From Deltaproteobacteria bacterium (GTDB taxonomy: Bacteria; Myxococcota_A; UBA9160; SMWR01), in the NCBI GenBank assembly GCA_019310965.1, contig JAFDDG010000009.1, positions 3,180-67,179 of the forward strand: a stretch of DNA of 64,000 nucleotides, written 5' to 3'. The notes below the pieces were generated by a model. That model was not told where the DNA came from. It made no database searches and was given only the letters and a program-made list of their open reading frames with translations. The position numbers and the translations under genes are program-made. The first letter of the stretch is position 1. Each line of letters begins with the position of its first letter. Below are positions 57,930-60,348 of the stretch, piece after piece.

Positions 57930-58199
57930 GTGAAGAAGATCTACGTTGGCAACCTTTCGTGGGGCGTCACAGACTCGGAACTGAAAGATTTTTTTGCAAA
58001 CTACGGAACGGTGCACTCCGCCGTCGTGATCACCGACCGGGAGACCGGTCGCTCGCGGGGCTTTGGCTTCGTCGAGATGGATGCCGCCGACGCGGAGAAC
58101 GCGATTCGCGAAGCCGATGGCAAGGACATGGGCGGACGCTCCCTGCGCGTCAACGAAGCGCAGGAGCGCCAGCGCCGCCCGCAGCGGGACCGCTGGTAG
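57930..58199 (+). CDS. Stand-alone RRM RNA-binding protein
   Basis: RNP-2 IYVGNL and RNP-1 RGFGFVEM; TAAGGA RBS. Confidence 0.95.
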   Translation: MKKIYVGNLSWGVTDSELKDFFANYGTVHSAVVITDRETGRSRGFGFVEMDAADAENAIREADGKDMGGRSLRVNEAQERQRRPQRDRW

Positions 58200-58242: not shown

Positions 58243-58351
58243 CGTCACGCGCCGCGCCGGCCGGCACACACCGCCCAGCGGTGGGCACCGCGTAACGCCG
58301 AGCGGATCGCTGAGCGCCTATGAGGCATTCCTCTCACCCGAGGACGCTTGA

Positions 58352-58801
58352 ATGTCTCACCTCGGCCGCACCCGCGGCCTGCCGCTCGTGATCACGCTGC
58401 TCGCCTGCGCGGGCAGCCCGCCGACCGACATCGGCGATTTCGCCGCGCGGCTCGCCCCGTGTCCGAGTTCGCCGAACTGTGTTTCCAGCGATGACGAGAG
58501 CGAGCGGCACCACATCGCCGCGCTCGGCTTCGGCGGCGATCCGCTGGAGGCGTGGCACAGGGCGCTCGCCGCGGTAGCAGCTCTGCCGCGAACACAGATC
58601 CTTCGAGAATACTCGGGCTACTTGCACGCCCAGTGCACGAGCGCTCTGCTGCGCTACCGCGACGACCTGGAGCTTCAGCTGCGACCCGATCGCGGAGAGA
58701 TCGCCGTGCGCTCGGCATCGCGCATCGGGTACAGCGATCTGGGAGTGAACCGCGCCCGGATCGAAGCCTTGCGAGCCGCCTTCGGCGCCGGCGGCTCCTA
58801 G
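58352..58801 (+). CDS. DUF1499 family lipoprotein
   Basis: PCPSSPNCVSS, DDLE and RSASRIGYSDLGVNRARI motifs. Confidence 0.92.
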   Translation: MSHLGRTRGLPLVITLLACAGSPPTDIGDFAARLAPCPSSPNCVSSDDESERHHIAALGFGGDPLEAWHRALAAVAALPRTQILREYSGYLHAQCTSALLRYRDDLELQLRPDRGEIAVRSASRIGYSDLGVNRARIEALRAAFGAGGS

Positions 58802-58817
58802 CCGTTCGCGGTTCGCG

Positions 58818-59282
58818 TCAGCTCGTGCCCGGGATGTCCCGGTCGAGCAACGTGCGCCGGCCGTCGCGACGCGCGTTCTCGATGGCCGTGTCGACGGCGT
58901 CGCGCACCAGATCCGAGAGCGGGCCGAGCGCCTTGTCCGACGTGCTGAACTCGCCGTTCCGCCTCACATACTCCTTGAGACGGCTGGCGACGATCAAGAT
59001 CTCGCTCCCCGGCGCAGCGCTGTCGTCGCTGCCGAGTGTCGGTGCGCGACGACGGGGCCTCTGCTCCGCAGCCTCGTGCGAAGCCGGGGCCTCGCGCTCG
59101 ACGGCCCAGGCCTCGCGGTGATTCGCACCGGGCAGGTGCACTTCCCAGCAGCGCACGCTGCAGAACGCGAGCCCGGTGCGCTTGCGGTTGCAGGTGGAGA
59201 CGTTGCACACCCAGTAGCCACTGGCGTACGCAATCGGCTCCTTGCACACGCTGCACCGGCGCCACTGCTGCACATCACTCAT
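58818..59282 (-). CDS. Bacterial histone-fold protein with an N-terminal ZZ-like zinc finger
   Basis: C-x2-C-x12-C-x4-C-x9-C-x3-C-x3-H-x5-H, a linker, then EILIVASRLKEYVR...STS...A.RDGRRTLLDRD; GGAG RBS. Confidence 0.85.
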   Translation of the reverse strand: MSDVQQWRRCSVCKEPIAYASGYWVCNVSTCNRKRTGLAFCSVRCWEVHLPGANHREAWAVEREAPASHEAAEQRPRRRAPTLGSDDSAAPGSEILIVASRLKEYVRRNGEFSTSDKALGPLSDLVRDAVDTAIENARRDGRRTLLDRDIPGTS

Positions 59283-59468
59283 TCTCCGCGGTCCTCCCCT
59301 TGCATCTCGTCCCGGTAGCGAGCTCTCGGCGGCGAATGCTACCGCAGCCACAGGCAACGAGGGGGTCGAACACCGGCGCTATCAGCACGGCCCGGCAGGC
59401 GCCTCGCTCGCGCCGGCACGACATTCCCGACGACTCCCCCCGCGGTGCCGCTGCGGTATCCTTGCCAC

Positions 59469-59687
59469 ATGCACATCGAAATCACCTACTGCGGCGCTTG
59501 AAACTTCCTGCCTCAGGCCTCCAGTCTGGCGGCCGCGATCCAGGACTCCTTCGACGTCAAGGCCAAGCTCATCCGAGGCGACAACGGCATCTTCGATGTC
59601 AGCGTCGATGGAAAGCTCATCTACTCGAAGCACGAGACGGGGCGCTTCCCGGAGACCGTGGAGATCCTCGACGGGCTGCGCAGCTGA
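59469..59687 (+). CDS. SelW/SelT/SelH (Rdx) family selenoprotein (CxxU; UGA 59499-59501 read as Sec)
   Basis: Not in ORF track. MHIEITYCGA-U-NFLPQASSLAAAI..GIFDVSVDGKLIYSK..GRFP, 72 aa. Confidence 0.92.
59516..59534 (+). promoter_or_regulatory. Putative bacterial SECIS element
   Basis: GGCC-T-CCA-GTC-TGG-C-GGCC stem-loop starting 14 nt after the UGA; G first in the loop. Confidence 0.65.
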
Positions 59688-59878
59688 GATATCCGCGTTG
59701 TCGGCGCTCAGTCCGCCCCGTGTAGCGGAGACTGTTCACCTGCCGCGACGACACCGGTGGCACCCGCGAGCAGCTCCACGGACCGCGGCCTGTCGGCCCG
59801 AAGTTCATGATACGCTGCGCGCCTCGCAGCGAGCCCCGCGGCGGCCCGCGCCGTGCGCGTGGCAGAGGTCTTGCCGAC

Positions 59879-60280
59879 ATGGCCGAGCGCAGCTTCTTTG
59901 CCGTCTCCACGCTCCTGTGGCTGGGATACGGCGTGTACTGCTTCTTCCAACCCGGCGTGCTGGCCGAAATGGCCGGTGTCATGGGCTCGACGCCAACCGC
60001 CACCACGGAGCTGCGCGCCATGTACGGCGGCGCCCAGGCGGGCATCGGCCTGCTCTGTGCCGGCGCCTTTGCCCAGGCGACCTTGCGACGTCCGGCGCTG
60101 CTGGCGCTGCTCTTCATCGTGGGCGGCCTGGGCACTACGCGCCTGCTCGGCGCGCTGCTCGACGGCTCGTTCACCAGCTACACATTCTCGGGCCTCGGCT
60201 TCGAGTGGGCAACGATCGCTGTGGCGGCGTGGCTGCTGTCGCGAACGAGCACGCCGCCCGCGGCCACATTCAGCTCCTGA
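59879..60280 (+). CDS. DUF4345-like membrane protein
   Basis: ELRAMYGG and RLLGALLDG motifs. Confidence 0.8.
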   Translation: MAERSFFAVSTLLWLGYGVYCFFQPGVLAEMAGVMGSTPTATTELRAMYGGAQAGIGLLCAGAFAQATLRRPALLALLFIVGGLGTTRLLGALLDGSFTSYTFSGLGFEWATIAVAAWLLSRTSTPPAATFSS

Positions 60281-60348
60281 GAGGGATCGGCCTGGGCCCC
60301 GGCACCGCGCTCGGGCGAGCCGCGGCATGCGCGAGCTAGACTGCCCGC

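Follow-up and report, generated by a model that had tools for sequence, protein, structure and literature searches.

A probable ZZ histone joining a two-site zinc module to an HBb-like histone fold in a deltaproteobacterial genome

To our knowledge, bacterial histones have been recognised as working chromatin proteins only since 2023-2024, and bench work has been confined to the free-standing HBb and HLp. HLp of Leptospira perolatii and HTkC of Thermococcus kodakarensis are FtF histones, which assemble into tetramers and wrap or bridge DNA in that state. Here we describe a gene in a 64,000-nucleotide stretch of DNA from a Deltaproteobacteria bacterium (assembly GCA_019310965.1, contig JAFDDG010000009.1, positions 3,180 to 67,179; the whole stretch is referred to below as the window) whose 154-residue product carries a zinc module at its N-terminus and a histone fold at its C-terminus. 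The protein is very probably a ZZ histone, a class defined by Schwab et al. (2024, Nat Commun 15:7950, PMC11390915) and exemplified by D0LYE7 of Haliangium ochraceum, which the main text of that study places mainly in 'Proteobacteria'. It adds no new kind of histone and is a further copy of a catalogued class. An initial annotation made from the DNA letters had called this class catalogued but little studied, in agreement with the published account (PMC11390915).

The gene is complete and occurs as a single copy in its own genome, and its product has a three-part layout. In window coordinates, the gene and its parts are as follows.

58818..59282, minus strand: complete coding sequence of the probable ZZ histone, 154 codons and a TGA stop
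59085..59264, minus strand: ZZ-like double zinc module, residues 7-66, with eight putative ligands and a net charge of +4
59007..59084, minus strand: variable low-complexity linker, residues 67-92, of which residues 75-80 (RPRRRA) are an Arg-rich patch
58833..59006, minus strand: predicted alpha3-truncated histone fold, residues 93-150 (alpha1 99-110, alpha2 116-139, one-turn alpha3 146-148)
58836..58859, minus strand: RxTxxxxD signature (R142-R143-T144-...-D149), comprising the loop-2 'RD clamp' and the pair of a basic residue and Thr for DNA contact

The start codon is the ATG at 59280-59282 and the stop codon the TGA at 58818-58820. This ATG was preferred over an upstream TTG at 59357 because the homologues start level with it, and a GGAGG sequence lies approximately 10-14 nt upstream of it.

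The published ZZ histones have the same architecture, in which an N-terminal module holding one C4 site and one C2H2 site is followed by an alpha3 fold like that of the bacterial dimer histones (PMC11390915). The ligands in the ZZ histone profile of that study are C10, C13, C41 and C43 for one site and C26, C31, H49 and H55 for the other. Residues 10-55 of the present protein contain exactly six cysteines and two histidines (C10, C13, C26, C31, C41, C45, H49 and H55), as the initial annotation had read them, and all eight were invariant in 46/46 diverse aligned homologues and in 18/18 close ones. The eight-ligand pattern was also satisfied in 77 of 80 public loci, the number kept from the 151 encoding loci that were found by scanning one genome per prokaryotic species. 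The fourth cysteine is residue 43 in the published legend (PMC11390915) but residue 45, in a CxxxC spacing, in the present protein, in all 46 homologues and in a copy from a Haliangium metagenome-assembled genome (MAG; L085). Following the cross-brace pairing of Schwab et al., C10, C13, C41 and C45 would form the C4 site and C26, C31, H49 and H55 the C2H2 site (PMC11390915), a split that is taken over from their study and is putative for the present protein.

A histone-fold stretch with an RxTxxxxD signature had also been proposed for the C-terminal part, together with a close likeness to the Bdellovibrio histone Bd0055, and both proposals were borne out. Residues 93-150 matched chain residues 4-61 of HBb (Bd0055 of Bdellovibrio bacteriovorus; PDB 8CMP, 8FVX, 9EZZ and 9F0E) in a sequence search of the PDB (8cmp_A, E 7.9e-07; 8fvx_A, E 8.8e-07), and the two are 33% identical across 58 residues. 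When a profile built from 46 members of the family was searched against the same database, HBb was matched at E 1.9e-18, HLp (9qt0) at 2.6e-10, HTkC (9f2c) at 7.8e-09, HmvA at 1.7e-06 and HMfB at 0.03. The AlphaFold 2 (AF2) model of the protein (mean predicted local distance difference test score, pLDDT, 89.2) has the same alpha1-L1-alpha2-L2 fold as HBb, and HBb chains were the top Foldseek matches (target template-modelling score, TM, 0.82-0.85; root mean square deviation 1.1-1.3 Å). The best of them was 9f0e_A, with E 1.4e-04, target TM 0.85 and a deviation of 1.3 Å over 57 columns at 33% identity. The FtF alpha3 histones HLp (9QT0) and HTkC (9F2C) have a related alpha3-truncated fold (target TM 0.86-0.90), but the present sequence is closer to HBb.

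In HBb, alpha2 is one turn shorter and alpha3 is reduced to a single turn (Hu et al., NAR 2024, PMC11317129), and a one-turn alpha3 is likewise predicted for the present protein. The expectation of a three-helix histone fold therefore held in part: the histone fold and a predicted dimer (described below) stand, but alpha3 is cut to about one turn and the fold is not the full three-helix form. Profile and fold matches in the PDB are our basis for the homology, because the Pfam and NCBIfam scores stayed below their thresholds (NCBIfam archaea_histone scored 16.6 bits where its cut-off is 50). These sequence and model comparisons support the assignment of the C-domain as an HBb-type, alpha3-truncated histone fold.

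The residues with which HBb touches DNA could be followed into the present protein. According to Hu et al. (PMC11317129), the main HBb contacts in molecular dynamics are N22, R57, S9, T53, T8, S24, K10, K12, K52 and K16, and the RD clamp is formed by R51 and D58, with D49. We mapped these residues through the 8cmp_A alignment, using an offset of 2 between chain and paper numbering that was checked by residue identities. In the same order, the ten contacts correspond to S113, R148, S100, T144, A99, S115, R101, K103, R143 and R107, and eight of the ten positions carry the same or a like residue (S100, R101, K103, R107, S115, R143, T144 and R148). The clamp residues fall on R142 and D149, with D140, and all of these are kept. 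R142, T144, R148 and D149 were invariant in 46/46 homologues, while S100, K103 and S115 were each conserved in 43/46, and position 113 was N in 39/46.

Dimer modelling, which had been put forward as a check on the histone fold, gave a positive result. Two full-length copies yielded a homodimer score of 0.71, against 0.00 for the best of three controls; in calibration, the pass mark was reached by 20/30 proteins solved as same-chain pairs and by 1/23 solved as single chains. The runs agreed in at least 83% of contacts, with a partner pLDDT of at least 67. Confident contacts were confined to residues 92-153, with alpha2 packed on alpha2 at 126:126 and loop 1 (113-115) set against loop 2 (144-146). 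The prediction is a symmetric homodimer in the form of a histone handshake that involves the histone domains only. Because solved HBb dimers exist, this outcome may reflect likeness to them, and it speaks for likeness rather than for binding.

Variants of the family are also informative about the dimer. Two homologues, P0126 (231 residues) and P0142 (234 residues), were seen directly to combine, within a single chain, the zinc module and two alpha3 histone folds in tandem. The zinc pattern together with two RxTxxxxD motifs was present in 10 of 150 representatives, and four more had two motifs without the zinc pattern. Judged by its sequence, the tandem-fold variant is a built-in pseudodimer. 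Since such fusions are expected if the dimer works, they support the dimer as the working unit. The main texts of Schwab et al. (2024) and of a 2026 review of double-histone-fold proteins do not mention tandem-fold variants, and the supplements of Schwab et al. may cover both these variants and the linker motif described below.

Along with this likeness, which extends over the one-turn alpha3, the RD clamp, the DNA-contact positions and the predicted homodimer, there are clear differences from HBb. HBb is a free-standing protein of approximately 60 residues, whereas the present protein has 154 residues with an N-terminal extension of approximately 92. It is because of this length and extension that we file it under the ZZ histones, a sister class of the bacterial dimers.

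The ZZ histone module is described as structurally similar to the ZZ domains of HERC2, p300 and ZZZ3, whose pocket residues it does not conserve (PMC11390915). An AF2 model of residues 1-72, built from 41 sequences (pLDDT 88.2; predicted template-modelling score 0.76), shows a small module rich in beta structure, whose helices span residues 29-32 and 43-53. When the isolated N-domain model was searched with Foldseek, 10 of the 15 first ranks shown were labelled ZZ (p62, HERC2, PRT1) and none had E <= 0.001; the best match was 5yph_A (E 0.09, probability 0.92, target TM 0.61). In a VIA fold search the best Z score was 4.5 and no chain had Z >= 5, with ZZ-labelled rows for ZZZ3 (4.0 and 3.6), p62 (3.7), CPEB1 (3.5), and HERC2 and BIG (3.4). 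A search of the ESM Atlas with residues 1-70 gave best values of 0.84-0.87 (TRASH, DUF3330, zf-FCS and YdaE clusters), which are below the 0.9 level and serve as leads only, and the family profile matched no zinc-finger chain of the PDB, ZZ chains included, at E <= 1. The N-domain may resemble the eukaryotic ZZ domains (p62/SQSTM1, HERC2, p300/CBP, ZZZ3, PRT1), which lead its Foldseek list, in being a small cross-brace module with two putative zinc sites, and it differs from them in that there is no sequence-level match and the fold scores are weak (VIA Z at most 4.5). The models support a zinc module with two sites and eight ligands, for which ZZ domains are the nearest solved folds, though weakly so. 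'ZZ-like' is the best available label, given the weak fold scores and the ligand pattern. The net charge of +4 is typical of the family, in which the median over 46 sequences is +4.5.

The low-complexity linker noted at the outset after the zinc ligands was located at residues 67-92, where the pLDDT of the AF2 model falls to 54, and we read it as disordered. At least two consecutive K/R residues were found in the linker of 32/46 homologues and an [RK]R.?[ILV] motif in 27/46, the usual form being P-[RK]-R-[RK]-[ILV]-[ILV]. In the present copy the motif is partly degenerate, reading RPRRRAPTL (RRRAPTL against the common RRR[LI]VR). Between pairs of sequences, identity averages 0.57 in the zinc module, 0.52 in the histone fold and 0.17 in the linker; on these sequence identities, the zinc module and the histone fold are under similar constraint.

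The family is large. Of 1457 candidates in a database clustered at 90% identity, 1413 matched at E <= 1e-3, and the 120 best of these have 57-79% identity and lengths of 151-187 residues. When representatives at 50% identity were scanned exhaustively with HMMER, the matching clusters numbered 568 at E <= 1e-3, 294 at E <= 1e-10 and 39 at E <= 1e-30. With 1413 matches at the first clustering level and 568 clusters at the second, the status of the gene as a conserved one is not due to chance. The titles of the 80 public loci are mostly those of Myxococcota or 'Deltaproteobacteria' MAGs and of Bdellovibrio or Bdellovibrionales MAGs, with a few other labels, which are perhaps binning labels; Haliangium and Bdellovibrio MAGs are among the carriers of the homologues that were fetched. 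Within the organism's own group (41 genomes, its own included), 33 genomes matched the ZZ histone and 30 of these matches included the zinc module. The histone part alone was matched in 3/41 (G002, G033 and G039), two of these matches lying at a contig end.

Taken as a whole, the reading that we favour, and hold to be fairly probable, is that of a ZZ histone dimer which bends DNA as HBb does, with zinc modules that add a second contact, in a low-copy accessory role. The dimer would bind DNA without sequence specificity through the minor-groove backbone contacts of HBb. The first turn of alpha1, loop 1 and the R-T pair in loop 2 would make these contacts, and the dimer would bend the DNA. Each chain would bind two zinc ions, and each dimer would carry two basic (+4) zinc modules, flexibly tethered to the N-terminus of alpha1, where the fold contacts DNA. 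Together with the Arg-rich linker, the zinc modules would most likely add a second contact, either to nearby DNA or to a partner. The protein would then act in chromatin or regulation as an accessory factor present in few copies and not as a bulk packaging protein. This accessory role is only suggested, because it draws on the weak expression of the copy in a single species, B. bacteriovorus, in which expression of the ZZ histone is described as very low and its abundance as low (PMC11390915). HBb, in contrast, is highly expressed and essential, whereas the ZZ class is reported to be weakly expressed (PMC11390915).

Several results weigh against this reading. Among the papers searched for the term, none reports an experiment on any ZZ histone. 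Neither the zinc nor the histone domain reaches Pfam thresholds: CBFD_NFYB_HMF (PF00808, gathering cut-off 21.4 bits) did not match the present protein and was weak in 3/18 homologues (best E 0.017), and the ZZ family PF00569 was unlisted at E <= 1 for the protein and for the 18 homologues. In the VIA search, rows for ribosomal zinc ribbons and for B-box, LIM and U-box domains were interleaved with the ZZ rows and lay within 1 Z unit of them. Two of the HBb contacts are changed, T8 to A99 and N22 to S113, and the net charge of the histone domain is 0, against approximately +3 in the aligned HBb stretch (counted from the alignment). Across the family, no gene neighbour is conserved that would hint at a partner of the zinc module.

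Some of these observations would also suit a histone-fold protein put to another use, such as a specific transcription regulator or an adaptor for protein or RNA, in which the zinc module gives specificity. A histone domain with no net charge is consistent with such a role, as are a zinc module that is as conserved as the histone fold, the scarcity of the B. bacteriovorus protein and the caution of Schwab et al. that not every 'histone' need organise genomes (PMC11390915). The weak look-alikes of the N-domain also include RNA-binding ribosomal zinc ribbons and, at 0.85-0.87 and as leads only, TRASH and MYM-type fingers. However, most of the residues with which HBb contacts DNA are retained, the positions of the RxT motif and the RD clamp are invariant and there is no conserved operon partner to suggest a pathway; we regard a non-architectural role as rather unlikely and retain the DNA-bending dimer as the preferred reading.

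A search of the genome for a stand-alone Bd0055-like partner had been suggested, and none was detected. Searches with the protein, with the family profile and with PF00808 found no free-standing HBb-like histone in the organism's own genome, which is 90% complete, so that absence is not proven. Instead, the genome encodes a 70-residue full-length histone on a separate contig (G000:C32:63587-63796, minus strand, equal to L006:1483-1695, minus strand). This protein scored 43.3 bits with PF00125 (core histone) and 38.2 bits with PF00808, both over the cut-offs, and its best PDB matches are H2B and archaeal histones. It was present in 33 of the 41 group genomes, and 28/41 matched both proteins (27 if the zinc module is required); five genomes had the ZZ histone alone and five the 70-residue histone alone.

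As a separate observation, three same-order genomes that lack the 70-residue histone gave matches to the histone-fold part only (G031:C1:4014505-4014732, G033:C69:30035-30268 and G039:C53:10-192). Two of these matches contain an internal TGA and one lies at a contig start; they could represent HBb-like histones that stand alone, or else copies that are broken or truncated.

The initial annotation had proposed that the zinc module is a built-in reader or interaction module. The second histone raises the question of whether the zinc module reads a protein N-terminus or tail and so docks the ZZ histone on the 70-residue protein, forming a two-histone chromatin system. The nearest solved folds of the module are peptide-binding ZZ domains, the two proteins co-occur in most of the group genomes as counted above, and 24 copies of the 70-residue histone share a well-conserved N-terminus, M-[AGS]-[DEA]-[LI]-P-N-A-V. 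However, this histone is tail-less, with alpha1 beginning at about residue 4 and an acidic, not basic, residue at position 3. In addition, the genomes in which either protein occurs without the other speak against the pairing, and a second histone is reported in only approximately 50% of the proteomes that contain a ZZ histone (PMC11390915). Docking on a histone tail therefore seems improbable, and the zinc module as an added contact of a DNA-bending dimer remains the preferred reading. A further elaboration of that reading, to which we give little weight, would treat the zinc module as a second basic head that binds nucleic acid or a partner. Together with the linker motif, such a head would make the HBb-type bending dimer a bivalent bridging or recruiting factor, working alongside the 70-residue histone in a division of labour.

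The genes that surround the ZZ histone gene in the window are as follows.

59283..59468, no strand: divergent intergenic region between the ZZ histone gene and the SelW-like gene, 186 bp
59469..59687, plus strand: gene of a SelW/Rdx-family selenoprotein, in which codon 11 (59499-59501) is a TGA in frame and part of a CGAU motif
57930-58199, plus strand: small RRM_1 RNA-binding protein, 76 bits
58352-58801, plus strand: DUF1499 protein, 119 bits
59807-60280, plus strand: DUF4345 membrane protein, 50.7 bits

The initial annotation had singled out the divergent SelW gene and raised the possibility of redox control of the zinc finger. The gene itself is real, divergently transcribed and a member of the Rdx family (Pfam Rdx PF10262, 66.8 bits; TIGR02174, 52.8 bits), and SelA (515 bits) and SelB (276.5 bits) are encoded in the genome, both over the cut-offs. 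An annotator that stops at the TGA would miss or shorten this gene. The hairpin that follows the SelW UGA (-21.3 kcal/mol, z = -1.4) was not significant, 18 of 200 shuffles being as good, and a scan of 58600-59800 returned 0 sigma-70-like promoters and 0 intrinsic terminators. For 58300-60300, no RNA data set was listed as containing the sequence, and the best DNA data set shared 0.35 of its words.

Neighbours were searched for by tblastn at E <= 1e-4 in the 80 public loci (for SelW also at E <= 1) and at E <= 0.01 in 21 loci from relatives. A SelW gene stood beside a ZZ histone homologue in 1/80 public loci, even at E <= 1 (L021, a divergent pair as in the window), and in 0/21 loci from same-genus, same-family and same-order genomes. 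Eleven of these 21 loci carry a flank of approximately 1.5 kb, which is still longer than the gap of 186 bp seen here. A conserved linkage of the ZZ histone and SelW was rejected on these counts.

Redox control would mean that the zinc finger is a switch, in which thiol oxidation frees zinc and the divergent SelW/Rdx protein services the module, coupling chromatin to the redox state. The closeness of the two divergent genes, the CxxU Rdx-family character of SelW in a genome with SelA and SelB, and the repetition of the pair at L021 would fit such a switch. Against it, the pair is missing from nearly all public loci and from every relative's locus, that of a same-genus genome included, the other local neighbours are likewise unconserved (a DUF1499 gene near the homologue in 1/80 loci, an RRM gene in 2/80 and a DUF4345 gene in 5/80), and structural Cys4 and Cys2His2 sites require no dedicated reductase. 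We consider a redox switch extremely unlikely. Since the linkage is not conserved, the adjacency is best seen as an accident of local gene order; on these gene-order comparisons the SelW gene looks unrelated to ZZ histone function and serves as context only.

All-against-all clustering of open reading frames from the 80 loci and the window showed that neighbour families reached at most 14 of 81 regions, the gene itself and shadow reading frames aside. The gene neighbourhood, SelW included, yields no functional clue. In one subclade, an Exo_endo_phos gene (PF03372) lies downstream of the ZZ histone gene on the same strand, at varying distance, in 14/80 loci (L041, L045-L047, L050-L052, L054, L056, L057, L059, L065, L077 and L084); it is absent from the window, and the label comes from a Pfam run of two members of the cluster.

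The value of these results lies in the class being unstudied at the bench, not in the present copy. The family analysis offers testable points in the size of the family, the similar constraint on its two domains, the basic zinc module, the Arg-rich linker motif and the double-fold fusions. If the division of labour with the 70-residue histone were true, most genomes of this group would have a two-histone bacterial chromatin system. Among bacterial histones, the ZZ histones are the only class known to combine the histone fold with a module that resembles eukaryotic readers of histone tails, and their function therefore bears on the origin of histone-associated domains.

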